Positions 7,164-59,581 are shown, numbered from the stretch's first letter. The stretch is 64,000 nucleotides of DNA from Desulfuromonadales bacterium (GCA_963665045.2 CAXXJQ010000002.1:22728-86727); one strand, 5' to 3'. Numbers and translations: made by a program. The notes: generated from the letters alone by a model not told the origin.

Positions 7164-9416
7164 TCAGTTCCGTTCCTGGCAGGATGAGCCGGGGACGTCC
7201 TCACCACACGGCCGAATACGGCAGCGCAGATACTCCCCTTTCAACGGCCAACCGCCGGACAATGCATCACATTTGTCCGGTTCGTCGTCTGTGGTCACAT
7301 TGATGTTGGCTTCCCACAAGCCATGTAGACAGGGCGCTTCCCCGGGCTGCTCCGGGAACCACCAGCCGTGCTGGGTGACAATGTAGTGAGGATCGAAGGC
7401 CGTGCTGAGACGTGCCCGCTGCCGAACGCGGCCGACGGGGCTTTCGATCCAGACCCAGTCGCCGTCGTTGATGCCTTGCCGCCGCGCCACATCCACGTGA
7501 ATCTCGACGATGGGATCGCGCTGCTGCTTCCTGAACCCCTCCACATGACGAAACTCACTGTGGTGATAGGGCATGAACCTCACCCCGCTGATGTTCAGCA
7601 GGGGATAAGCCCGCCGGACCTCTTCGGGGATATCGGGTTCAGTGTAGTGAGGCAGGGGATCATAACCCAGTTTTTCCAGAATCGTACAACTCAGCTCCAC
7701 CTTGCCGGATGTCGTGGCCAGCCCCGGAGAACGGCAGCGTCCCGCCCGGGGCTTTTCCCCGACCCAGCGCTTTTCGTGCACAAACTCCTCCAGAGTCTCG
7801 CAGCCATGCTCCTCCATGATCTCGGAGATGCGGTACTCCCACAGGGCGGCGAACGTAGGCCACGGCCAATCATTTTCCTGCCCCAGGCGCAGCCCCAACT
7901 CGCGCCAAAAGGCGTAGTCATCGAGCCGCTCGTAGCGACCCGGCACCACCGGCGGGACTGCCGCTTCCCCGAGCTGAACCAGGGGATAGCCGCCCACCGA
8001 CGAGAAATTGCCCATGTCCGGGCGCTCCATCCAGCAGGCAGCCGGCAGGACGTAATCGGAAAGCCGCGCGGTCGGCGTCCAGGTTATGTCAAAGGTCACC
8101 GACAACTCCGTCGCCAACATGGCGTCATGGACGAGTTTGGTATTGGCATAGGAAAGGAGGGGGTTACTGCATGAGGAAATCAATGCTTTTACCGGGTACG
8201 GCTTTCCGGTCAGTATCGCCCGGAAGACGCTCGGGGCATGGGCGCAGGAATGTAAATTGACCGCTGCGGAATGCCGCTCTCCCCAGACGCGCCGCATCTG
8301 CTCCTCCATCAGCTCCCAGCCCGGGTAGCCGCTGAAGCGAAAGCGGTCGCTGCCCAGTTGTTTGGCGCGCTGTTCCGGCGCCAGACGCTCGTTCGCCTCC
8401 AGAACAACATCCGGCAAAAACCCCGGACATGGACCGGCGACCAGGTCACCTCCCGGCACATCGATGCTGCCCACGATGGCACGCAGCAGATTGATGGCAC
8501 GGATGCCCTGGATACTGTTGGGCGCGCTGTGTTCGACCGCGACCCCGATGGTCATGACGGAGGGCTGGTTGGCTGCATAAAAACGCGCTATCTCGCGAAT
8601 GCGTACAGGTGTCAACCCGACCTTTTCAGCCACCGTTTCCGGAGCGTATTGCGCCGCCCGGATCCGCAACTCGTCAAACCCGTGCGTGTACGACGCCACA
8701 AATTCGCGGTCGTAGAGCTCCTCCTCGATAATCACGTGAATCATCGCCATGGCCAGCAGGGTATCACTGCCCGGCCGGAGCTGAACCCAGCAATCGGCCT
8801 GACGGGACGGCTCCGTACAGCGGGGGTCGATGACCATGGTGCGCATGCCCTCGGCTTTGGCTTTCCGGAAGCTGTTCCAGGTCGAAGGTCCCCCTTCGTG
8901 GGCGTTGCGCCCCCACAACACCATCATGCGGGTCGTGCCCGGACGCCGGTCCGAGACCAGGTGCCCCCCGAAGGTGCTGAACCACACCAGGGCCCTGGGC
9001 GCGTAACAGATGGTAATGACGCCAAAGCGGTTGGGGCTGCCGAACAGGTTCATGAAACGCGTCTTGGCGAACTCCGCGCCGCCACGGCCGGTCCCGGAGC
9101 TGGTGGCCACGGCCTCCGCGCCATAGCGTTCCCGGATATCGGCCAGACGCTTCGCAATCTCGTCCAGCGCCTGCTCCCAGGATATCTGTTCCCAGCGGTT
9201 CTCCCCCCGTTTTCCCTTTCGCTTGAGCGGAAAGGAGAGGCGGAAGGGATGCTCCTGATACTCCTTGGCCAGGGTCGGGCGCACACAGAAACCTCCCGGA
9301 CCCACCGGCGCCGACGTATCCACGGTAACCCGCTGCACCTGCTGGTTCTCGACATACACCTTCATGGCGCAGCCCTTGCTGGTGCAGAAATAACAGCTGC
9401 TGAGTTTGACCTCCAC
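7164..9416 (-). CDS. Cytoplasmic molybdopterin (Mo/W-bisPGD, DMSO-reductase superfamily) oxidoreductase
   Basis: 750 aa. N-terminal 4Fe-4S motif C-x2-C-x4-C-x28-C (SCYFCTSKGC...FCVRP) with no twin-arginine signal. Typical MopB and C-terminal molydop-binding regions. Stop/start spacing to the upstream gene is 2 nt. Confidence 0.85.
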   Translation of the reverse strand: MEVKLSSCYFCTSKGCAMKVYVENQQVQRVTVDTSAPVGPGGFCVRPTLAKEYQEHPFRLSFPLKRKGKRGENRWEQISWEQALDEIAKRLADIRERYGAEAVATSSGTGRGGAEFAKTRFMNLFGSPNRFGVITICYAPRALVWFSTFGGHLVSDRRPGTTRMMVLWGRNAHEGGPSTWNSFRKAKAEGMRTMVIDPRCTEPSRQADCWVQLRPGSDTLLAMAMIHVIIEEELYDREFVASYTHGFDELRIRAAQYAPETVAEKVGLTPVRIREIARFYAANQPSVMTIGVAVEHSAPNSIQGIRAINLLRAIVGSIDVPGGDLVAGPCPGFLPDVVLEANERLAPEQRAKQLGSDRFRFSGYPGWELMEEQMRRVWGERHSAAVNLHSCAHAPSVFRAILTGKPYPVKALISSCSNPLLSYANTKLVHDAMLATELSVTFDITWTPTARLSDYVLPAACWMERPDMGNFSSVGGYPLVQLGEAAVPPVVPGRYERLDDYAFWRELGLRLGQENDWPWPTFAALWEYRISEIMEEHGCETLEEFVHEKRWVGEKPRAGRCRSPGLATTSGKVELSCTILEKLGYDPLPHYTEPDIPEEVRRAYPLLNISGVRFMPYHHSEFRHVEGFRKQQRDPIVEIHVDVARRQGINDGDWVWIESPVGRVRQRARLSTAFDPHYIVTQHGWWFPEQPGEAPCLHGLWEANINVTTDDEPDKCDALSGGWPLKGEYLRCRIRPCGEDVPGSSCQERN

Positions 9417-46226: not shown

Positions 46227-47576
46227 TTAATTTCTTAACGTTTTTGCAACAATTTCTGCCGCTTTAACAAGAGGGAATCCTGCAGGAGAAGCTGTCAATA
46301 AGGGTTGTGTTCCGATTTGAGTCATAATTAAATCATGGACTGTCATGTGGTTTTGAATGGCAACACCGATGGTATTAGTCAATTGGCCGGCACATTTGCC
46401 TCCAAGTACTTCACCGCCAAGGATAACACCTGATTGTTTACATACAATAAGCTTGACTGTTTCTTTGTGGGCGTCTTCTAACTTCCCCGGATGGCGGTTG
46501 ACGCCTGTAAAAGAACCAGCAACAATTTTGAAACCTTCCTTAATTGCTGCTTTCTCTATTAGACCTGCTACGCCATATGCTGTTTCCCCAATACATGTTG
46601 AGTAAATACCAACGGTTCCTTTAAAAACACTGAAAGTATTAAGTTCATATAAATTCAATGCTGCTATACGGGCTTCCGTACAAGCAGTTGATGCAAGCAT
46701 AATCCCACTCAGTTTACCAGTTGCAAAGTCAACTTTTTCTGCGCAGTCACCAGCTGCGAAAACATCTTCAATAGATGTACGACGATATTGATCCGCTTTT
46801 ATAAATCCATATTCATTAAGGGCTAATCCCATATCTTCGGCTAAAGATGTATTTGGTTTATAACCCAATGACAATATTACGGCATCAGCTTCTATAGAAC
46901 TCCCGTCATTAAAAGTAACACCTTCTACTTTGCCATTTCCAGTAATCGATTTAATTCCACAATTAGTTTTAACATTTACTTTCCGATTAACTAATTTTTC
47001 TTGAGCATCCAAACAAAATTCATCGTCAAATGTTGCACCTAGAACAGTAGGTAAAATCTCTACCAATGTTATTTCTTTTCCAATTTTATTTAATTCATCG
47101 GATACTTCTACGCCAATAAAACCTGCGCCAACAACAACGATCTTTTTTAGCCCGGCAAGTTTTTCTTGTATATGATCAAGGTATATTTTATCTTTAGGAA
47201 TTGTATAAACGTTTTCTAACTCTGTTCCGTCTAGCCAACTTGGAATTGTCGGCGTTGAACCTGTTCCCACAATTAACTTTTCATAAACAAGTGTTTCCCC
47301 TGATTTGGTCTGACATGATTTTGCTTTTGCATCTACTTTCACAACTTCATCAACAAGAATATCTACACCCAATTTAATTAACCCATCATCCGGCAAGATA
47401 TTATTGTCGCTAGACCCTGTCGTTCCATAAATATATGGAATACCACAGGGAATCATAACCTTTCCTTCTTTTCTAACAACGGTTACTTTTTTGTCCGGAT
47501 AGTTTGACTTGGCTGTCATTGCTGCTACCAGTCCAGTTGCACTACCACCGATTACCAATACATCTGTCTTTTTCAT
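46227..47576 (-). CDS. FAD-dependent pyridine nucleotide-disulfide oxidoreductase (NADH oxidase / CoA-disulfide reductase family), low-GC gene
   Basis: MKKTDVLVIGGSATG FAD motif, single redox Cys in VMIPCGIPY, second Rossmann fold VVVGAGFIGVE, and FAAGDCA. GGAGG RBS before the Met at 47576; the track ORF extends to 47699. Confidence 0.8.
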   Translation of the reverse strand: MKKTDVLVIGGSATGLVAAMTAKSNYPDKKVTVVRKEGKVMIPCGIPYIYGTTGSSDNNILPDDGLIKLGVDILVDEVVKVDAKAKSCQTKSGETLVYEKLIVGTGSTPTIPSWLDGTELENVYTIPKDKIYLDHIQEKLAGLKKIVVVGAGFIGVEVSDELNKIGKEITLVEILPTVLGATFDDEFCLDAQEKLVNRKVNVKTNCGIKSITGNGKVEGVTFNDGSSIEADAVILSLGYKPNTSLAEDMGLALNEYGFIKADQYRRTSIEDVFAAGDCAEKVDFATGKLSGIMLASTACTEARIAALNLYELNTFSVFKGTVGIYSTCIGETAYGVAGLIEKAAIKEGFKIVAGSFTGVNRHPGKLEDAHKETVKLIVCKQSGVILGGEVLGGKCAGQLTNTIGVAIQNHMTVHDLIMTQIGTQPLLTASPAGFPLVKAAEIVAKTLRN

Positions 47577-48059
47577 TCTACGGCCTCCAAGTGATAAAAA
47601 ATTCTCGGCCCCGACAGCCTCCCAAAATGAATTAGTTAAATCCTCCACTTCAATAAAACCCCTGTCAACAAAAAAATCCCCCAAGCCCGTCAAATTCACC
47701 TTGGGCTAAACCGGGGGAGATAATACCTATTGGGATGATGAACGCTGAAATCCATATCCTGAAAAAATGGGGGGGGGCATCCCGAATGGCGCTAGTTTAA
47801 GGGGTTGTCGCACGATCTTCGTTCCGGTGTGGGCACTCTTTCATTTCACGTCGTGGAGAGGTGACCCTCTGGTAAATTTCGGGTCGTCGTTTGACACACC
47901 GGGGTTCCTTCTCCCCGGTCTTTGTCGTGCCGGAGTATTGTTTATGGCCTCATATAAGTCACTGATTAACCGAAAGCGTTCTTGGATACTGATTTTGGTC
48001 CGATAACGCATGGGCGGCGTGGGTAAGAAAAATGAAACCAATTTTTCGATAAACAGCGA

Positions 48060-48764
48060 TTATGTTTCCCTTTTCTGGCTTGTCTCACCCCCTTTTATCA
48101 GCTTCAACTCCCTTTCAAAGCATTGCGGACATATCCCGTGTGAGGCTTCGGCACCGGAAATGTCTCTGACATACTTCTCGACCGTGACCCACTCGCCCGT
48201 TTCCTCGCGAACCTTTTTGCAGTAACTGCAGATCGGATAAATTTTGCTTAAGCCATCGATAAAATGGTCCCGGCGATCTATCTCCTTCTTGTCTAATACA
48301 ATGCGAAGAGACAGTTCGATCATCCTCTTAATCTGATGAATCAGTCTGATATGAAGGTCATTATGAGCGTTCTCCTTGTTGTCCAAAAAACAAACAGTCC
48401 CGAACTGCTCTCCATCAGGGCGCTCAATGGGCATGCCTACGTATGAGACCATGTCCAGTTCGACGGCAGCGGCATTGTTTTTCCATTCAATATCTTGCCG
48501 TGCATTTGAAATCAGATTAAGCCCCCTGCTTTTTAGAGTGTGTTCACAGTACCAGCCAGAATCGGGATACCGTGACATGAGCTCTACCGAATAAGGATTA
48601 CCTGCTGTCTCACTGGAAAGAAAAATTTCAATTTCATCACCATCGACACGGGTGATCAACCCCGCAGGCACACCAAGAAGTTCAGCCGCCTCATCAAGCA
48701 GGTTCTGCCACTCTCCCATAAAGTCTTCGCTAATATTTTCTCTATTAAATGGATTTCGTCCCAT
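48060..48764 (-). CDS. GAF-like sensor domain protein with the C-terminal Cys4 (PICxxC...HGICPxC) module
   Basis: 234 aa. The N-terminal ~150 aa resemble GAF (LGVPAGLITRVDGDEIEIF...YCEHT...). The C-terminus reads IYPICSYCKKVREETGEWVTVEKYVRDISGAEASHGICPQCFE. Confidence 0.7.
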   Translation of the reverse strand: MGRNPFNRENISEDFMGEWQNLLDEAAELLGVPAGLITRVDGDEIEIFLSSETAGNPYSVELMSRYPDSGWYCEHTLKSRGLNLISNARQDIEWKNNAAAVELDMVSYVGMPIERPDGEQFGTVCFLDNKENAHNDLHIRLIHQIKRMIELSLRIVLDKKEIDRRDHFIDGLSKIYPICSYCKKVREETGEWVTVEKYVRDISGAEASHGICPQCFERELKLIKGGETSQKRET

Positions 48765-49132: not shown

Positions 49133-49164
49133 ATAAAAAAGCCGGCTCGCAAACGAGTCGGCTT
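49133..49164 (-). terminator. Rho-independent terminator of the cytochrome operon
   Basis: The minus strand reads AGCCGACTCG-TTTG-CGAGCCGGCT followed by TTTTTTATTT. Confidence 0.7.
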
Positions 49165-49186
49165 TTATGCTCAAATGGAAGAGATG

Positions 49187-51859
49187 CTAATTCTTCACCC
49201 TCATCAACTGCCGATTGCGGAACTTATGCAGCATATTGGGGTGATGAACGCTCATATCCATGTCTTTGGTGTGGCAGAGACGGCAGTTCATTTCGGAACC
49301 GATAGGAAGGTTGTTGGCCTGGTACTGCATAGGCGGAATATTGTCACGTTCCTGGCCGTACATGTTGGTGGCGGGGTAATTGGCGTGGGTGGAGCCGTGA
49401 CAGGATTCGCACATCAGGCCCATGTTGTCGGTACGCAGGCGGAAAAGTTCGCCCGGACCGGCTGTCCAGGTATTAAAGCCATTGACATCCTTTGAAGCCG
49501 GTTTCTGGAAATCAACATGGCAGTTGAGACAGTCGGGCTCATTGATCCAGGGAATCCTGCCTTTGACCTCTTCGACGGACGCCACAACCTTGGGTTCAAG
49601 ATGGCGCATCAGCCTGTCCACATCCTTGCCATGCTCCTTTTCATACTTCAAAAGGCTCAAAGCATGATCCGCCAGGGTGCCGTGACAACTGGTGCAATCG
49701 AGGTCCAAGCCGGCATGCACGCCGCGCAAACAGCCCGTGGGACCGGTGGCGGAGGCGGGATGGCACTTGAAACAGGCGTCGGTGCCACGATCGGTCAGGT
49801 AGTTGGCGTGCCAGCCGTGCATAGCGGCCGGGAAATTGGGGATTCCCGGCTGGCCCTTGGTGCCCAGAACCGGGTCGGCGTGGCAGCTTTGACAGAGCAG
49901 CGGCTTGCCGGCCCTGGCTTTTTTCAGTAGATCAGTGCCATTGATACGGTCGTGAACGCGAAGCACATCCGCCGAGGTTTCATCGGTAAAACCGGCCACA
50001 CCGGCTACCCGCCACTCGCCTCCATGGCAGTTTTTACAGCCCATCTCCGTGGAAGTCGGGGCAACGAAGCGGCCGGTCGCGAGGATCTTGCCGGTTTTCT
50101 TGTCGACGGCTTCCACCGTGTAGAGCGGATAGGGATTGAAGGAGCCGTCGTCCGGATAGGGAACCACCGGAACCAGCGTCGCTTCAAAAGCCTTGAGTTT
50201 TTCGTTCAACTCCATCTCGCCGTCGGTGACAGGATTGCCGGAAACACCGCTGTTAAGAGGCAATTTTTTGCCCAGCAGAGACTCGGCAAATTCCCAGAAG
50301 CGCACATGCTTCGAAGGATTCTCGAACCCTTTTTCCACCCGGTAATGCAGGGTCACCCCTTCGGTGACGATCTGCGGGCGTTCCCCCTTGCGCACCAGCT
50401 GAGCATAGAGATCATTGGCCGGAGGCAGAAGAATCCAGTAGGGATCGCTGTCCGAGATGCAGTGCATGCCCAGGTTGTTCCAGGCGAGCAGAACATACTC
50501 GTCGTCAGCTTTATGGGGTGGAATTTCATAGGCGGGCGCCTTCGGCTTGTAATCCACCCCTTGAGGAGCTTTTTGGCCATGCAGACCCTCGACGATATAG
50601 GCCGCCAGGGCCTCGCGTTCGGCGCGGATGCCCAAGAATTGGGGCATGTAATTGTTGATTTTGCCAAGCCCGTTAAGCATGGAATCCATACCGAAAACGC
50701 TGTTGAACTTGGCTGTGAGAGGCAGAATGTCGTTCATTACGCCGCCGATGGAATGGCAGGAGGAACACTCCAGCTGAAAAATATCCGTACCCGCCTCAAC
50801 CCTGTTCTCCGGGGTTATGGCTTCGAACCGGGTCCATTTGGCACTTTTGAGAACCCCTCGTTGATTGATGGAGACGGCATCAGCAACCCGGATGGAATTG
50901 GAATACATGTGACCGTGCACCAGGTACGGCCGCCGCGCGCCTTCGCGGGTGAATTCAAATGCCCCCATGTACAAAAGACCGAGAAACAAAAGAAACAGGG
51001 CGGCGGATTGCTGCAAACCACGGGGCAGACGGATGCTCATGGCCAGCACAGCCAGGAAGATGACCGGGGAAAGGGTGAGGAACCCGTTGATATAAGTACT
51101 CATTTCCGGAGAAACCTTCAGCATGAGGGTGCGGGTCTCGGCCGGAATTGCATACAGGTACCAGAATGCGGAAGCAAGCATGAGGATAAACGGCAAGGGC
51201 ATCAATTTTACGGCGTAGCGCACCATCTTCTGCCGGACTTCGTCGTCTTTCAGAAAAGCAGCGGTAACGATGGCGAACAGGGAAGCGAAGACCAAAGCGA
51301 TGAAGGTGCGGAAAAACACGGACGGCCAGAAAGTCGGGTTGAAAAATCCACTCCAGAAACTACCATTTTGCAGCCAGGCCCCGGGGGTCAGCATAAAATC
51401 GATAATCCCCGTAATGATGAACAGCGACATCCAGGCGCAGATGAAATATATCCAGCCGATAAGCAGGTGCTTTTGCCGCGCCATCTTGCCAAAGGTATAG
51501 AAATAAACGAAAAGGGCGACGATTTCACCCACGAAAAAGACCCATTCCGTGGCCCATCCGAAGACGAAATTGTGGATCAGAACCGACGTCGCCGCCGGCG
51601 ACAGAAGGGAGATGGTAAACCATATTCCAACCCCGGTGAGGCCGCCGAATACCATGGTCAGCAGAAGAAAAAACTTGGTGTGCTTGCGGGTGTAATCGAG
51701 GATCGGCTGTGAATTTTCCCGGTAGCCCTTCATTTCGCAAAGGACCAGGAAAAGGCCGCCGCCAACGGCAAAATGAGCGACATAGACATGCACGACGGCC
51801 ACCAGGGCGATCCAGAAACCGCCACCCAGGATCGTAAGTTCCCAGATTGGATAATTCAC
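49187..51859 (-). CDS. Fusion protein: CydA-like (cytochrome bd subunit I-like) membrane domain + octahaem c-type cytochrome domain
   Basis: 890 aa. The N-terminal ~330 aa are polytopic with CydA-like motifs (HVYVAHFAVGGG, GWATEWVFFVGE, DFMLTPGAW, NPTFWPSVFFRTF). Eight CxxCH motifs follow: CSSCH, CKNCH, CQSCH, CFKCH, CTSCH, CLNCH, CESCH, CRLCH. Confidence 0.75.
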   Translation of the reverse strand: MNYPIWELTILGGGFWIALVAVVHVYVAHFAVGGGLFLVLCEMKGYRENSQPILDYTRKHTKFFLLLTMVFGGLTGVGIWFTISLLSPAATSVLIHNFVFGWATEWVFFVGEIVALFVYFYTFGKMARQKHLLIGWIYFICAWMSLFIITGIIDFMLTPGAWLQNGSFWSGFFNPTFWPSVFFRTFIALVFASLFAIVTAAFLKDDEVRQKMVRYAVKLMPLPFILMLASAFWYLYAIPAETRTLMLKVSPEMSTYINGFLTLSPVIFLAVLAMSIRLPRGLQQSAALFLLFLGLLYMGAFEFTREGARRPYLVHGHMYSNSIRVADAVSINQRGVLKSAKWTRFEAITPENRVEAGTDIFQLECSSCHSIGGVMNDILPLTAKFNSVFGMDSMLNGLGKINNYMPQFLGIRAEREALAAYIVEGLHGQKAPQGVDYKPKAPAYEIPPHKADDEYVLLAWNNLGMHCISDSDPYWILLPPANDLYAQLVRKGERPQIVTEGVTLHYRVEKGFENPSKHVRFWEFAESLLGKKLPLNSGVSGNPVTDGEMELNEKLKAFEATLVPVVPYPDDGSFNPYPLYTVEAVDKKTGKILATGRFVAPTSTEMGCKNCHGGEWRVAGVAGFTDETSADVLRVHDRINGTDLLKKARAGKPLLCQSCHADPVLGTKGQPGIPNFPAAMHGWHANYLTDRGTDACFKCHPASATGPTGCLRGVHAGLDLDCTSCHGTLADHALSLLKYEKEHGKDVDRLMRHLEPKVVASVEEVKGRIPWINEPDCLNCHVDFQKPASKDVNGFNTWTAGPGELFRLRTDNMGLMCESCHGSTHANYPATNMYGQERDNIPPMQYQANNLPIGSEMNCRLCHTKDMDMSVHHPNMLHKFRNRQLMRVKN

Positions 51860-52920
51860 TTAGCCTCCTGTTTGCACTTAGCAGCCAGATTGAGCATGTA
51901 AGCCACCAGCCCCAGACCAAGGACAAGGGCAATGAGAAAGACAATCATGGGCGAGTACTGCGGCACCAGGGTCAAATCGGACAGCTGGAAATAGGGCTTC
52001 AGAAAAGCCGTCCGCACCAGGTCGCGGACAATGGCCATGAAAACAACCGTTACGAAGGTGGTTACTACTGCCGGCCAGACGCGGCGGGTGAAGCCGAAAA
52101 CCAGGGCCAGAACCGCCCCGGCCAGACCAAGGATAAAAATGGCGGTGTTGAGCCCTGCCCCACCCATGAAACTGAACATGATCTCCCTGGGCAGGGTGAT
52201 CAGAAACCAGAAGCCGATAATGATCTGCGCCACCGTGGCGTAAGAAAACCATTGCATGCCCTGAGAAATCCTTTTCTCCCGCTCCGGTATGGTTTTGCGC
52301 AGCTTGGCGAGAAGGGCCTGAAACAGGCCGCCGAGGGCCACGGATGCGACGACAAAATGCAGGTAGCGGGGCCAGAGAGTGGGATCGCCGAGATTCAGCA
52401 TAGTTCCGGAGCGGTCAGCAAAGTAGCCCTGCCAGCTTTCCGGCACCAGCATAAGGGTCATGTTGTTAGTAAACATGAAAGCGACGACCAAGCCGAGGAT
52501 AGCCGTCAAGCCGATAAAAAAGGTCCTCGCGCCAGGCATTTTGTCAAAGCGGAAGGCATAGCCATAGGCGCTGTAATAGAGCAGAATGAGCAGCCCGATG
52601 ACCGATAGCCAGTAAACGGCCATAAGAACCGAACTGACATAAATGAATTGTCCATAAAGAACCTGCAGGAAAAGAAAAGGAGCAACCCCAAGGTTGACAG
52701 TGAAGGCGATGGTATAAGGAAGCTTTTTTGAAATGTCCCTGCTCAGCCAGGCATCCGTTTTTCTCAGATCACCGACAAAAGCCATGATGGCCGACCCAAG
52801 CATGACATTCATGAAAAGCAGGTGCAGGACAAAGGTAAGAATCAGGAAAAAGTAGAGCCACCCCCACGAAACCGGAATTGCATCAGCCACCGGGATAAGG
52901 TTTTCCACGGTCATGGTCAC
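51856..52920 (-). CDS. Polytopic membrane partner, apparently paralogous to the CydA-like domain of the downstream gene
   Basis: 354 aa, ~9 TM. LHLLFMNVMLG, MTLMLVPESW and DPTLWPRYLHFVVASVALGGLF parallel motifs of the 890-aa protein. 4-nt overlap with the downstream start. Confidence 0.65.
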   Translation of the reverse strand: MTMTVENLIPVADAIPVSWGWLYFFLILTFVLHLLFMNVMLGSAIMAFVGDLRKTDAWLSRDISKKLPYTIAFTVNLGVAPFLFLQVLYGQFIYVSSVLMAVYWLSVIGLLILLYYSAYGYAFRFDKMPGARTFFIGLTAILGLVVAFMFTNNMTLMLVPESWQGYFADRSGTMLNLGDPTLWPRYLHFVVASVALGGLFQALLAKLRKTIPEREKRISQGMQWFSYATVAQIIIGFWFLITLPREIMFSFMGGAGLNTAIFILGLAGAVLALVFGFTRRVWPAVVTTFVTVVFMAIVRDLVRTAFLKPYFQLSDLTLVPQYSPMIVFLIALVLGLGLVAYMLNLAAKCKQEAK

Positions 52921-53411
52921 GTTCCTTTCAAGGGGAAGGGATTAACGCGGATTCACTTTCTAGAGACTCAGCCTTTTAGCTAACCGGCAACCGAAGAAAC
53001 GCCCCCAAAAAAAATCAATTCGACCCGGTGTTTGCCCCCAGAGTATTTTTTCGAAAGGCCAGTTTTTCAGACAAGTTTACATAAAATCTTTATAGCTTGA
53101 AGCAAATTTGTCAATTAAAAGATAAGAAACCTTTTACTTATTTTCTCCAATCTCAAAACCAGAAAACATATCGGTGGCAATTTCCAAAAAAACTGCCTCC
53201 CCTCATACTCCTTTGGAGATTACTTCTTCGGCAGGGTTGCAATTTTCCATCAGAAAATCAGTTTCGATTGACGTCTACCCGACCTTTATATTTTCCGTTC
53301 AATTTTTTATTGTATTATTTTATTGAACAAAAATTGCTAACTATCTATTTTAAAAGTTTTACTACAAATCAAAAAAATCCGGTTGAACTTCTCAAGGGGA
53401 AAAGTGAGCTT

Positions 53412-56274: not shown

Positions 56275-57579
56275 TTACAGATGCGACCATTTGCGCTTTT
56301 CGCGCTCATCCATAACCTTGTAGGCGCAGTATTCTCCGCACATGGTGCAGGCGCCGTGTTCTTCATTGACGCCGGAAGAGTCCCGCAGGCGCCGGGCTTT
56401 TTCCGGGTCAATGGCCATTTTGTACTGACCTTCCCAGTCGAGGGCCTTGCGATAGCGGCTCATGGCCAGGTCCTTCTCCAGGGCACCGGGAACCCCTTTG
56501 ACGATATCCGCCGCGTGGGCGGCAAGGCGGCTCGCCATAACCCCTTCGTGAACATCTTCGATACCGGGCAGGCAGAGATGCTCGGTAGGTGTCACATAGC
56601 AGAGGAAATCGGCACCGGCAGCGGCGGCAATGGCCCCGCCAATGGCGCAGGAAATGTGATCGTAGCCGGGCGCGATGTCGGTGACCAGAGGGCCGAGGAC
56701 ATAGAAAGGCGCCCCGTGGCAGAGCCGTTTCTGAAGCTGGATGTTGGTTTCGATCTGGTTCAGGGGAACATGGCCGGGGCCCTCGATCATGACCTGAATG
56801 CCGGCGTCCCAGGCACGCTGGGTCAGTTCACCGAGAAGGATCAGTTCGTGAATCTGGGCACGGTCGGTGGAATCGGCAATAGCACCGGGACGGAAACCAT
56901 CGCCCAGCGAGAGGGTGGCGTCGTAGGGGCGCACGACTTCCAAAAGACGGTCATAAAATTCATAGAGCGGGTTTTCGGCATCGTTGTGAGCCATCCAACC
57001 ACAAGTGAAAGAACCACCGCGGGAGACCACCTCCATGATGCGGCCTTCACGATCCATTCTCTCGACCGTACTGCGAGTCACGCCACAGTGGACAGTAATA
57101 AAATCAACGCCATCGTCGAGATGCTTGATAATGCCATCGAAGATTTCATCGACGGTCATATCAACGATCGCCTTTTTCTTGCGGGTAACCGTATCTACAG
57201 CTGCCTGATAAAGGGGCACACTGCCGATGCAGGCATCGGTTTCTTTTATGATGGCCTGGCGGATTTCATCAACCGGACCGCCGGTGGAAAGGTCCATGAT
57301 GGCATCAGCTCCGGCCGCTACGGCGACCCGGGCTTTTTCCAGCTCTTTGTCAATGCTGGTGTCGTCCTTGCTTGTCCCGATATTAGCGTTTACCTTGGTG
57401 CGAAGGCCCTTGCCAACCGCCAAAGGTTTGCCATGGGTATGCTTGATATTGTGACAGATGATAGCGGTTCCCTCGGCAATGCGCTGCCGCAGAATTTCAG
57501 GATCAACATTCTCTTCCGCCGCCGCAAACTTTACTTCCTCGGTGATTTTTCCCTGGCGGGCTAACTCCAACTGCGTCAT
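56275..57579 (-). CDS. thiC: Phosphomethylpyrimidine synthase
   Basis: 434 aa. Motifs NANIGTS, DLSTGG, TVHCGV, VSRGGS, GDGFRPG, IEGPGHVP and the C-terminal CTMCGEYC. Confidence 0.95.
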   Translation of the reverse strand: MTQLELARQGKITEEVKFAAAEENVDPEILRQRIAEGTAIICHNIKHTHGKPLAVGKGLRTKVNANIGTSKDDTSIDKELEKARVAVAAGADAIMDLSTGGPVDEIRQAIIKETDACIGSVPLYQAAVDTVTRKKKAIVDMTVDEIFDGIIKHLDDGVDFITVHCGVTRSTVERMDREGRIMEVVSRGGSFTCGWMAHNDAENPLYEFYDRLLEVVRPYDATLSLGDGFRPGAIADSTDRAQIHELILLGELTQRAWDAGIQVMIEGPGHVPLNQIETNIQLQKRLCHGAPFYVLGPLVTDIAPGYDHISCAIGGAIAAAAGADFLCYVTPTEHLCLPGIEDVHEGVMASRLAAHAADIVKGVPGALEKDLAMSRYRKALDWEGQYKMAIDPEKARRLRDSSGVNEEHGACTMCGEYCAYKVMDEREKRKWSHL

Positions 57580-57833: not shown

Positions 57834-59249
57834 TCAGATATCCAGTTTCAAAGAATGGAAAGCCGCCCGGAAATGATTGACCGGCCCATGGCCGGAACCA
57901 AAACCGGGAGCATGCCGAATAGCCTCGGTAATATATATCTTGCCTTTTTCCACTGCCCGCACCAGCGGTACCCCTTGGGCCAGGAAAGTGGCGATAGCTG
58001 CCGAATAGGTGCACCCCGTCCCGTGGGTATGGGGGGTATCGAAGCGTTGCTCCCGGAAACGGTAGACTTTGCCGTTGGCCAATAACAGATCGACGGAATC
58101 CCCTTCGAGGTGCCCCCCTTTAACAAGAATGTTGCGAGCCCCCATGGAATGAAGCTGGAAAGCGGCTTTTTCCATGTCAGCTTCTTTTTTGATGGTCATC
58201 CCGGTCAATACCTCGGCCTCGGGGAGATTGGGGGTGATGAGGTAAGCCAGGGGCAGAAGCTCATCGCGCAGGGCGGCTACGGCATCGTCCTGCAGCAGTG
58301 ATGCGCCTCCTTTGGCAATCATGACCGGATCGACAACTGCCGGCAGTGAATATTTACGGATATTTTCAGCAACGATACGGATAATTTCGGGCAAAAAGAG
58401 CATGCCGACCTTCAGGACATCAGCGCCGATATCTGAAAGAACGGCTTCGATCTGATCCTGAATGAACTCCGGAGGTGCCGGATGGATATTGCGCACACCC
58501 AGGGTGTTCTGAGCGGTCAGGGCGGTTATGGCGCTCATACCAAAACTGCCCAGCAGGGTCGAAACCTTGAGGTCGGCCTGAATCCCTGCCCCCCCTCCGG
58601 AATCGGACCCGGCAATGGTCAACATGCGGCCCCGCGGAAAGGGTTTAAGGCTGTTAAAGCTTAGTACGATCTCTCGGGCTGCCAGAGCCGGATCGGGATC
58701 GCCCATAACCGCCGAAACCACGGCCAGGACATCCGCCCCGGCGGCGAGAACGCTGCGGGCGTTTTCACTGCTGATCCCACCGATGGCGACGATGGGAATT
58801 TTTACCGCTTTGCGGATTTCAGCTAACCCTTCCGGACCGATCACAACCGCATTTTCCTTGGTCCCGGTGGGGAACATGGCGCCCACACCGATATAATCGG
58901 CTCCGTCCGTTTCCGCCTTGGCAGCCAGTTCAACAGTCCTTGCGGAAATGCCGATAATTTTGTCCTTGCCAAGGAGGCTGCGGGCCTCGCCGAGGCTCAT
59001 ATCTTTCTGGCCGAGATGCACACCGTCGGCGCCACAGGCCTGGGCCACCTCGGGGGTATCGTTAACGATAAAAAGGGCTTTGTGTTCCCGACATAAAGTG
59101 CACAGCTTTTTGGCTACGGCAATCCGCTCTTCGACAGACTTGTGCTTTTCACGATACTGGATCATGCGAGCGCCGCCGGCCAGAGCCGCAGCAACCTTGG
59201 CCTCCAGTTCGCCTTCACCACCAGTAATAACGTAAAGTCCTGTAATCAT
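57834..59249 (-). CDS. Bifunctional thiamine-phosphate synthase (ThiE, N-terminal) / hydroxymethylpyrimidine-phosphate kinase (ThiD, C-terminal)
   Basis: 471 aa. ThiE motifs: LYVIT, IQYREK, FIVND, GVHLGQKD, ADYIGVGAMFPTGTK, VAIGGI. ThiD motifs: LTIAGSDSGGGAGIQADLK, ALTAQNT, ILVKGGH, THGTGCT. Confidence 0.9.
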   Translation of the reverse strand: MITGLYVITGGEGELEAKVAAALAGGARMIQYREKHKSVEERIAVAKKLCTLCREHKALFIVNDTPEVAQACGADGVHLGQKDMSLGEARSLLGKDKIIGISARTVELAAKAETDGADYIGVGAMFPTGTKENAVVIGPEGLAEIRKAVKIPIVAIGGISSENARSVLAAGADVLAVVSAVMGDPDPALAAREIVLSFNSLKPFPRGRMLTIAGSDSGGGAGIQADLKVSTLLGSFGMSAITALTAQNTLGVRNIHPAPPEFIQDQIEAVLSDIGADVLKVGMLFLPEIIRIVAENIRKYSLPAVVDPVMIAKGGASLLQDDAVAALRDELLPLAYLITPNLPEAEVLTGMTIKKEADMEKAAFQLHSMGARNILVKGGHLEGDSVDLLLANGKVYRFREQRFDTPHTHGTGCTYSAAIATFLAQGVPLVRAVEKGKIYITEAIRHAPGFGSGHGPVNHFRAAFHSLKLDI

Positions 59250-59257
59250 AGCGATTT

Positions 59258-59428
59258 CCTTAATCCAAAAAAATAAAAATGCCGTGAACCTATTAGGTCC
59301 ACGGCATACAATGAGTATATTCCCTGTTGCGCCGCTTCCCTACGCCGGTATTATCCGGATCAGGTTCCAAGGGTCGTCTGCTTCTGGCAGAACTCTCAGT
59401 GTCCCATGTAGACACTCCCCGCTCGGGC
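59258..59428 (-). promoter_or_regulatory. TPP (THI-box) riboswitch with terminator expression platform
   Basis: The minus strand reads GGGGAGTGTC...GGGACACTGAGAGTTCTGCC...ACCCTTGGAACCTGATCCGGATAATACCGGCGTAGGGAAGC, the textbook THI element. It is followed by CCGTGGACC-TAAT-AGGTTCACGG-CATTTTTATTTTTTT just upstream of thiE/D. Confidence 0.9.
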
Positions 59429-59581
59429 TTTTGAGGTAAGCTACAGGAGTCGGTTGTTTTTGTCAATAAGTTTCAGTTAGATTGATTTATGGGCATTATA
59501 ATTACCTGGGGTTTTTTTTAGGATTTTGTTAATAATAAAAAAATTGATTTCAATCCTCCTTATAAAGAAAATTTGCGATCC

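Follow-up and report, generated by a model that had tools for sequence, protein, structure and literature searches.

An octahaem CydA-like protein and its membrane partner from a Desulfuromonadales bacterium: an OR-C1-type gene pair and candidate cytochrome-c-linked terminal reductase

A 64,000-nucleotide stretch of DNA from a Desulfuromonadales bacterium (GCA_963665045.2 CAXXJQ010000002.1:22728-86727, hereafter the window) carries two adjacent genes on its minus strand, which are the subject of this work. Gene A (49187..51859) is an open reading frame (ORF) of 890 amino acids, predicted to encode a CydA-like membrane domain followed by a periplasmic octahaem region, and gene B (51856..52920), an ORF of 354 amino acids, encodes a membrane protein. 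On their sequence features, A and B are assigned to the OR-C1a/OR-C1b family of the cytochrome bd superfamily, a kind of protein that has already been described. The pair is probably (at a probability of about 0.58) an OR-C1 terminal reductase linked to cytochrome c and not to quinol, most likely a reductase of O2. In the mechanism that we favour, A and B would form a pseudo-symmetric membrane dimer resembling CydA/CydA', in which B takes the place of CydB. The seven distal haems c of A would collect electrons from the periplasmic cytochrome pool (c3) and hand them to a His/Met-ligated class-I haem c, placed where the Q-loop and haem b558 sit in the canonical enzymes. From this haem the electrons would reach a membrane-embedded di-haem site with H24 and E306 as ligands, at which O2 or a chemically similar small oxidant would be reduced. 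Protons would be supplied from the cytoplasm via a channel containing E105 and E112, and thereby a membrane potential would be generated and O2 removed; the reaction would be electrogenic, since its electrons and its protons would come from opposite sides of the membrane, periplasm and cytoplasm, respectively.

The family assignment follows the classification of Murali, Gennis and Hemp, in which the bd superfamily was divided into qOR, OR-C and OR-N (Murali et al. 2021; bioRxiv 10.1101/2021.01.16.426971; ISME J). According to these authors, the quinol site is missing from OR-C, haem-c motifs are present in its subunit I, and cytochrome c is the proposed electron donor. OR-C1a proteins were described as having eight helices and a C-terminal periplasmic haem-c region, with the gene adjoining that of a duplicated OR-C1b subunit. 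The same features were found here, namely an eight-helix A, no quinol site, a CxxCH extension and an adjacent B that is devoid of the channel glutamates. Furthermore, all ten residues listed for the OR-C1a reference of Desulfovibrio senegalensis in Supplementary Table 6 of that paper (F183, H24, E105, E112, S145, H131, Y119, Y121, V77 and W80) are present in A with identical numbering. Eight-haem members are listed in its Supplementary Table 7, including a Desulfobulbus mediterraneus protein that corresponds to locus L035 of our analysis. A first-pass annotation of this DNA had pointed to bd-superfamily surveys that mention biochemically uncharacterised clades associated with haem c, which is true of OR-C. 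Its presentation of the pair as a previously undiscussed module was overstated, as OR-C1 with its eight-haem members had been tabulated in 2021. Papers published since then have cited the classification or used its hidden Markov models, nothing more, and in a 2024 survey a 65-member Desulfovibrionaceae cluster of such proteins was left with no function assigned. No biochemical or functional study and no solved structure of OR-C1 was found in the literature searched, nor was an OR-C structure among the PDB matches of our searches with A and B. The points that are new here are E306, the His pair of B, the nine-helix model of B, the MtrC-like pentahaem segment, the wider range of phyla and the lack of a third partner gene.

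The membrane domain of A (residues 1-312; 50924..51859, minus strand) was defined as an eight-helix CydA-like domain from the PF01654 match, the profile comparison with 5doq_A, residue conservation and the helices of the structure model. PF01654 (Cyt_bd_oxida_I) matched residues 17-223 with 41.2 bits, above its gathering cut-off of 26.2. A profile built from 30 diverse relatives of the domain retrieved CydA of Geobacillus thermodenitrificans (5doq_A) with E = 5e-13 in two aligned stretches, and the bd-II CydA of Mycobacterium smegmatis with E = 3.6e-4. When the AlphaFold model of A (predicted local distance difference test (pLDDT) 84.5; predicted template modelling score (pTM) 0.82) was compared with the PDB by Foldseek, CydA or CydB accounted for each of the top 20 matches (lowest E 1.4e-7). 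The CydA-like character that had been read from helix signatures in A is confirmed by these searches. Positive charges in the alternate loops of A are distributed as 11 versus 2 Lys/Arg residues, which places the N-terminus outside and, after helix 8, the rest of the protein in the periplasm, as the attachment of haem c requires and as had been expected for the CxxCH region.

Alignment of A with solved CydA structures gave the equivalences (in E. coli numbering) of H24 with His19 and of E105 and E112 with Glu99 and Glu107. The spacing of the two glutamates is shorter in A than in E. coli, and it is likewise shorter in Geobacillus. E306, which lies in the motif FEFTREGARRPY, corresponds to Glu445 of the CydA motif E-x-G-R-Q-P-W, and this alignment arises independently with two different solved oxidases. 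The domain also carries S145 and H131, and F183/R184 occupy the place of His186. Conservation was measured in 104 sequences, that is A and 103 family representatives down to about 32% identity. W80 is present in all 104, E105, R184 and P311 in 102 each, E112 and R309 in 100 each, H24 in 98 and E306 in 93. The Glu445 position was scored as absent from OR-C1a by Murali et al. (2021), whereas here E306 aligns with it and is conserved. The features of quinol oxidation are missing from the same domain. Where His186 ligates haem b558 in CydA, A has F183, and His occurs at this position in 0/104 sequences; no equivalent of Met393 was found in A in the alignments to solved CydA, and there is no Q-loop, as the model helices 221-237 and 240-249 are joined by a few residues. 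Since A retains the residues for the high-spin haems and for proton feed without the features of quinol oxidation, a cytochrome-driven reductase is favoured.

Protein B contains no CxxCH motif, and no match to it was found in Pfam (PF02322, CydB, included) or NCBIfam; all its database copies are named 'hypothetical protein'. However distant, its relation to A could be established by hhalign, which aligned B with the membrane domain of A at 92.6% probability, and at 97.3% (E = 1.7e-11, 270 columns) when the diverse family profile was used; the alignments span 270-279 columns. The AlphaFold model of B (pLDDT 85.1) has the bd fold, and its best Foldseek matches are 9r2g_A (CydA) and 5doq_B (CydB). 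The homology was demonstrated by profile-profile comparison and fold because a search of PDB sequences with the B profile gave no bd-oxidase match. From these alignments B is identified as a distant paralogue of the membrane domain of A, and the CydA/CydA'-type pseudo-heterodimer of the first-pass annotation is supported. A comparison of both proteins with PF01654 and PF02322 had been proposed there; A lies above the cut-off, whereas B has no Pfam match and is linked to the superfamily only via the A family. Nine helices are predicted in the model of B, versus eight given for the b subunit by Murali et al. (2021). Its alternate loops contain 15 versus 3 Lys/Arg residues, indicating an N-terminus outside, and it has no Q-loop either, the model helices 214-242 and 245-254 being directly consecutive.

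The residues kept in B differ from those kept in A. Of the set His19, Glu99, Glu107 and Glu445, only the first is retained, as H33, and the three glutamate positions are Y103, L110 and T304. H188 corresponds to His186, the b558 ligand position. Across phyla, H33 was found in 61/61 B orthologues, H188 and R303 in 61/62 each, and R185, M295 and R299 in 62/62 each; Q86, Y94 and N153 are further invariant polar residues. As for the His/Glu haem-ligand positions on which the CydA reading had been staked, H24 and E306 of A and H33 and H188 of B occupy such positions, and those of His186 and Met393 were lost from A. Since H33 and H188 are invariant, B probably binds a cofactor of its own. An extension of this idea, which we regard as distinctly unlikely, is that B binds one or more b-type haems via H33, H188 and perhaps M295 and forms a quinone site, so that the complex would be a junction of the quinone pool, the periplasmic multihaem network and the di-haem site. 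Such a three-way junction might act either as an oxidase driven by quinol or cytochrome or as a conduit working in both directions between quinone and cytochrome and, if true, would be a type of respiratory complex without characterised precedent.

The part of A that follows the membrane domain carries eight CxxCH motifs, as originally counted, at residues 365, 608, 656, 696, 722, 777, 817 and 859. All eight occur without exception in 73 orthologues, which represent many phyla and together with A form the set of 74 sequences used for this region. The first motif belongs to a class-I (cytochrome c6-like) monohaem domain (residues 345-428; 50576..50827, minus strand), recognised from profile matches and conservation. 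Its profile matched cytochrome c6 (2v08_A) with E = 1e-4, and a weak match to PF13442 was also obtained. In the alignment M405 falls on the axial Met of the 'MP' motif of c6, and C365, C368, H369 and M405 are 100% conserved. Haem 1 is probably bound by C365, C368 and H369, with M405 as the sixth ligand. A beta-strand-rich periplasmic domain without haem motifs comes next (residues 450-600; 50060..50512, minus strand), as delimited by the AlphaFold secondary structure. Its pLDDT is mostly 85-96, and no Pfam match, no PDB sequence match and no recognised family was found for it. The remaining seven motifs (608-859) lie in residues 601-890 (49190..50059, minus strand), a region defined by the motifs and by matches to PF22113 and PF14522. 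PF22113, the pentahaem model of MtrC/MtrF domains II/IV, matched residues 693-873 with the last five haems at 31.5 bits against a cut-off of 30 and covered profile positions 6-175 of 176; the PF14522 match scored 34.6 bits. Eight His residues outside the motifs (636, 681, 684, 715, 732, 825, 872 and 873) are at least 95% conserved. With eight conserved spare His for seven distal haems, all seven could be bis-His ligated. Judged from this residue count, the distal haems are apparently bis-His and the region looks like a wire and not like a catalytic octahaem enzyme. An unusual haem, His/Cys-ligated or other, formed via C467 or C710 was also considered and was rejected, as neither Cys is conserved across phyla.

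The octahaem form is one of several in the family. An exhaustive search with the membrane domain gave 882 clusters at 50% identity, and among the best 150 representatives of the A family one CxxCH motif was counted in 54, two in 18 and eight in 17. Because the one-haem and two-haem forms outnumber the eight-haem form, the class-I monohaem form appears from these counts to be the base state and the octahaem form a derived clade. This distribution bears on the reading that the octahaem region is itself catalytic, like the octahaem nitrite, tetrathionate or hydroxylamine enzymes, with the bd-like pair serving only as anchor and as electron sink or source. The number of haems and the well-folded, conserved, non-haem beta domain would suit such an enzyme, and the C-terminal 461 residues of A gave a very weak match to the Shewanella octahaem protein 1sp3_A (E = 1.4). 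That match is not significant, nor was any other when this part of A was compared with PDB sequences, and significant similarity to the catalytic octahaem families is lacking. The invariant His and Met residues suffice to six-coordinate all eight haems, there is no CxxCK or other atypical motif, and a single class-I haem in most family members points to the membrane domain as the site of the conserved function. A catalytic octahaem region is thus very improbable.

The order of the haems in A also suggests the direction of electron flow. Class-I haems with His/Met ligation usually have high potentials, and bis-His haems usually have low ones. With low-potential distal haems and a high-potential proximal haem, inward flow would be favoured and electrons from menaquinol would be trapped. 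We therefore infer that electrons enter the pair from the periplasm. The opposite had been part of the first-pass annotation, in which the pair was read as a bd-type haem-b scaffold conducting electrons from quinol to the periplasm, or in reverse; this proposal is not sustained by an A without Q-loop, His186 and Met393. In its general form this alternative is a quinol dehydrogenase or reverse quinone reductase, which would connect the menaquinone pool with periplasmic or extracellular cytochromes via the octahaem wire, as CymA, ImcH, CbcL and NrfH do. H33 and H188 of B are invariant across phyla, and the polar residues Q86, Y94, N153, R185, R299 and R303 suggest a cofactor or substrate site that a conduit could use; the distal five haems of A resemble the MtrC pentahaem domain, and metal and sulfur reducers are among the hosts. 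A quinone-binding role has moreover been proposed in a 2026 preprint for the CydA-like subunit of a Ferrigenium octahaem complex (bioRxiv 10.64898/2026.01.22.701106). In that proposed 'octahaem cytochrome complex' of Ferrigenium straubiae, a CydA-like subunit is genetically associated with multihaem cytochromes that total eight haems, and the CydA-like protein retains, according to the authors, the three-haem ligand set and the quinone site. The haems are on separate subunits there, and the likeness to our pair is by description only. The Q-loop is missing not only from A but from B as well, and a pure wire would have no need of di-haem ligands and of both channel glutamates that are kept strictly across the family. 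The membrane-proximal His/Met class-I haem, normally of high potential, would trap electrons from menaquinol, and a family that is mostly single-haem and occurs also in aerobes (Sphingobacterium, Chitinophaga) fits an oxidase, not an export wire. In addition, the NapC/NirT/CymA, NrfH, ImcH and CbcL families gave sub-threshold, motif-level matches only (NrfH 9.7 versus 134 bits; DmsE 24.9 versus 192). Taken together, a conduit function is considered unlikely.

The identity of the acceptor is a separate question from the direction of flow. Octahaem proteins occur in at least 595 species-level genomes when one genome per species is scanned, and more than 120 full-length relatives with the 890-amino-acid architecture and 55-79% identity were found among the matches listed. 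The hosts belong to Desulfobacterota, Bacteroidota (Draconibacterium orientale), Ignavibacteriota, Calditrichia, Gemmatimonadales and Krumholzibacteriia, and they include sulfate, sulfur and metal reducers as well as anaerobic Bacteroidota. Bacteroidota, Ignavibacteriota, Calditrichia, Gemmatimonadales and others extend the octahaem form beyond the phyla named in the OR-C1 paper. The concentration of this form in strict anaerobes (Desulfobacterota, anaerobic Bacteroidales, Ignavibacteriota) would agree with a detoxifying reductase of the same architecture and electron direction, in which nitric oxide (NO), H2O2 or nitrite is the acceptor. The same possibility is favoured by two known properties of canonical bd oxidases, the rapid binding and release of NO and side activities that metabolise peroxide, and by the result that a search of the upstream regions of 71 orthologous loci gave no regulator site related to O2. 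However, such an enzyme is not separated from an O2 reductase by its sequence, and the conserved residues are exactly those of bd oxidases; neither an HcpR-type nitrosative-stress motif nor conserved nitrogen-oxide genes nearby were found. An acceptor of this kind is rather unlikely, and O2 is preferred.

Several points weigh against the cytochrome-c-linked O2 reductase that we favour. O2 reduction by OR-C is an extrapolation from the canonical bd oxidases, and no purified or deleted OR-C member was found in the literature searched. Most octahaem hosts are strict anaerobes, so the acceptor used in vivo may be something other than O2, and no oxidative-stress regulon motif was found in the 71 upstream regions. 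Because B retains the equivalent of His186, a b558-like haem could still be accommodated there, and perhaps a quinone site as well. Finally, the proposed haem ligation and redox potentials are derived from residue counts and the type of motif.

Comparison with known systems shows which elements of the pair have precedents. Canonical CydAB (qOR1-3; 5doq, 6rko, 6rx4, 7oy2, 7nkz, 9r2g) shares its fold with both subunits and has the His19, Glu99, Glu107 and Glu445 whose equivalents are present in A, and it too is a pseudo-symmetric subunit pair encoded by a two-gene operon. It differs in having a Q-loop and the His186/Met393 site of haem b558, neither of which is found in A, and CydA has nine helices where A has eight. 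Subunit II is CydB (PF02322) in the canonical enzyme, whereas here it is the CydA paralogue B retaining two His; moreover, eight covalent haems c are fused to subunit I here and no cydX or cydDC lies nearby. A parallel for B is the archaeal CydAA' (qOR4a/qOR4b, for example of Caldivirga maquilingensis), in which the a-type subunit has eight helices and the second subunit is also a duplicate of CydA with its proton-channel residues lost. Unlike the present pair, CydAA' lacks haem c and still possesses haem b558 and a quinol site, and its duplication was regarded as an independent event (Murali et al. 2021; bioRxiv 10.1101/2021.01.16.426971). The decahaem cytochromes MtrC and OmcA resemble the periplasmic part of A, as haems 4-8 match the whole pentahaem model, if marginally (31.5 versus 30 bits), and a beta-rich domain precedes the haem region in MtrC as in A. 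They differ in being lipoproteins with two pentahaem domains alternating with two beta-barrels, whereas A has one pentahaem unit and an inner-membrane anchor of eight bd-like helices and lacks both a lipoprotein signal and MtrAB-type partners; with TIGR03507, the model of the OmcA/MtrC family, A scored 8.1 bits against a cut-off of 209. The same design logic, a class-I cytochrome c fused to an oxidase and replacing the quinol site as the point of electron entry, is known from caa3 subunit II and from CcoP of cbb3. These haem-copper oxidases belong to an unrelated catalytic superfamily, and the pair has no copper or haem-copper centre.

The organisation of the locus agrees with a two-gene operon. 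Genes B and A share 4 nt (GTGA; 51856..51859, minus strand), in which B terminates and A starts, an arrangement that indicates translational coupling, and an AGGAGG ribosome-binding site lies directly 5' of the GTG start codon of A. An intrinsic terminator was located 3' of A (about 49135..49166, minus strand), consisting of a U-tract preceded by a GC-rich hairpin that contains a single bulge. The hairpin has a folding energy of -19.1 kcal/mol (z = -3.0), and 0/200 shuffled sequences fold equally well; it was missed by a simple terminator scan because of the one-base bulge. The two coupled genes, their overlap and a terminator of their own are all as first annotated, and so is the lack of cydB, cydX and cydDC, none of which was seen between 44000 and 58000. 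The start of B is more probably the ATG at 52914 than the listed GTG two codons earlier, which would give a protein of 352 amino acids. The closest relatives of B are 351-353 amino acids long, a length of 352 is shared by P0121 (a relative with 98% identity) and by the majority of family members, and the ATG is better spaced from a purine-rich stretch than the GTG.

The pairing of the two genes is conserved. In 75/77 loci with upstream sequence, the gene immediately 5' of A is B, in the same orientation, and related loci most often show the -4 overlap as well. Two loci with a full-length octahaem A, L049 and L053, have no detectable B upstream; L053 contains a 100-N scaffold gap, and L049 an unrelated 366-amino-acid ORF and about 1.5 kb without an ORF of at least 80 amino acids. 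When all ORFs within 8 kb on either side were clustered for 80 related loci, no third conserved gene was found, and only A and B recur. Neighbours such as purF-like and methyltransferase-like genes, sensor kinases, sigma-54 activators, TolC/HlyD and dnaA were each present in at most 10 loci and look incidental. In a 98%-identical long-read contig from ENA (L081, 5445..8123), gene calling breaks A up into three pieces of 273, 335 and 287 amino acids, most likely owing to frameshift errors of the assembly.

The intergenic region 5' of B (52921..53411, minus strand) is unusually long, about 490 bp, and AT-rich, and it is presumably here that the operon of two genes has its promoter and regulatory sites. 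No sigma-70 consensus site was detected upstream of B by a scan of the coding strand. Among the 71 orthologous upstream regions, no FNR/CRP, HcpR/Rex, sigma-54 or Fur pattern was shared, nor was any gapped inverted repeat or 7-mer when these were searched for de novo. An Rfam scan of the whole window found nothing in 52921..53411; its sole match was a thiamine pyrophosphate (TPP) riboswitch elsewhere (RF00059, 64.3 bits, 59320..59431, minus strand), upstream of the thiamine genes, which include a thiD/thiE-like ORF (57834..59249, minus strand) and thiC (56275..57579, minus strand).

As for the surrounding genes, the upstream neighbours in the window are a PF03601 membrane protein, a LysR regulator and these thiamine genes, all unrelated to the pair. 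In L081, thiC adjoins B and the PF03601/LysR pair is absent. Downstream of the terminator there are a GAF-domain protein (48060..48764, minus strand), whose C-terminal part bears a cluster of four Cys, and a pyridine-nucleotide-disulfide oxidoreductase (46227..47699, minus strand). A 334-amino-acid gene and Pyr_redox genes follow A in L081 in the same order as in the window, and this arrangement was not kept in 80 distant loci; a link of these downstream genes to redox stress is possible. Farther away, a 750-amino-acid molybdopterin oxidoreductase is encoded at 7164..9416 (minus strand), whose 90%-identity cluster members are named 'anaerobic selenocysteine-containing dehydrogenase'.

The closest relatives of A among the matches listed are from Desulfonatronovibrionaceae and Desulfosarcina (74-79% identity), and its homologues in Desulfuromonadales (Desulfuromusa, Malonomonas) are only 57-59% identical. 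Judged from the 90%-identity cluster members of ThiC and other proteins, the host is probably an uncultured relative of Desulfuromonadaceae. Although housekeeping genes put the host near this family, A is closest to proteins of these other lineages, which suggests lateral transfer; the identities hint that the A/B module was acquired in this way.

OR-C1 belongs to one of the three branches of the bd superfamily, and no biochemical, genetic or structural study of it was found in the literature searched. Being widespread and uncharacterised, it is a worthwhile experimental target, although a specialist would readily recognise it from the 2021 classification. If the pair is indeed a cytochrome-c-driven O2 reductase, it would allow strict anaerobes to pass electrons from the cytochrome c3 pool of the periplasm straight to O2 while conserving energy. 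In that case the inference of oxygen tolerance from genomes would also change, as A is now annotated as a quinol oxidase and B as a hypothetical protein.

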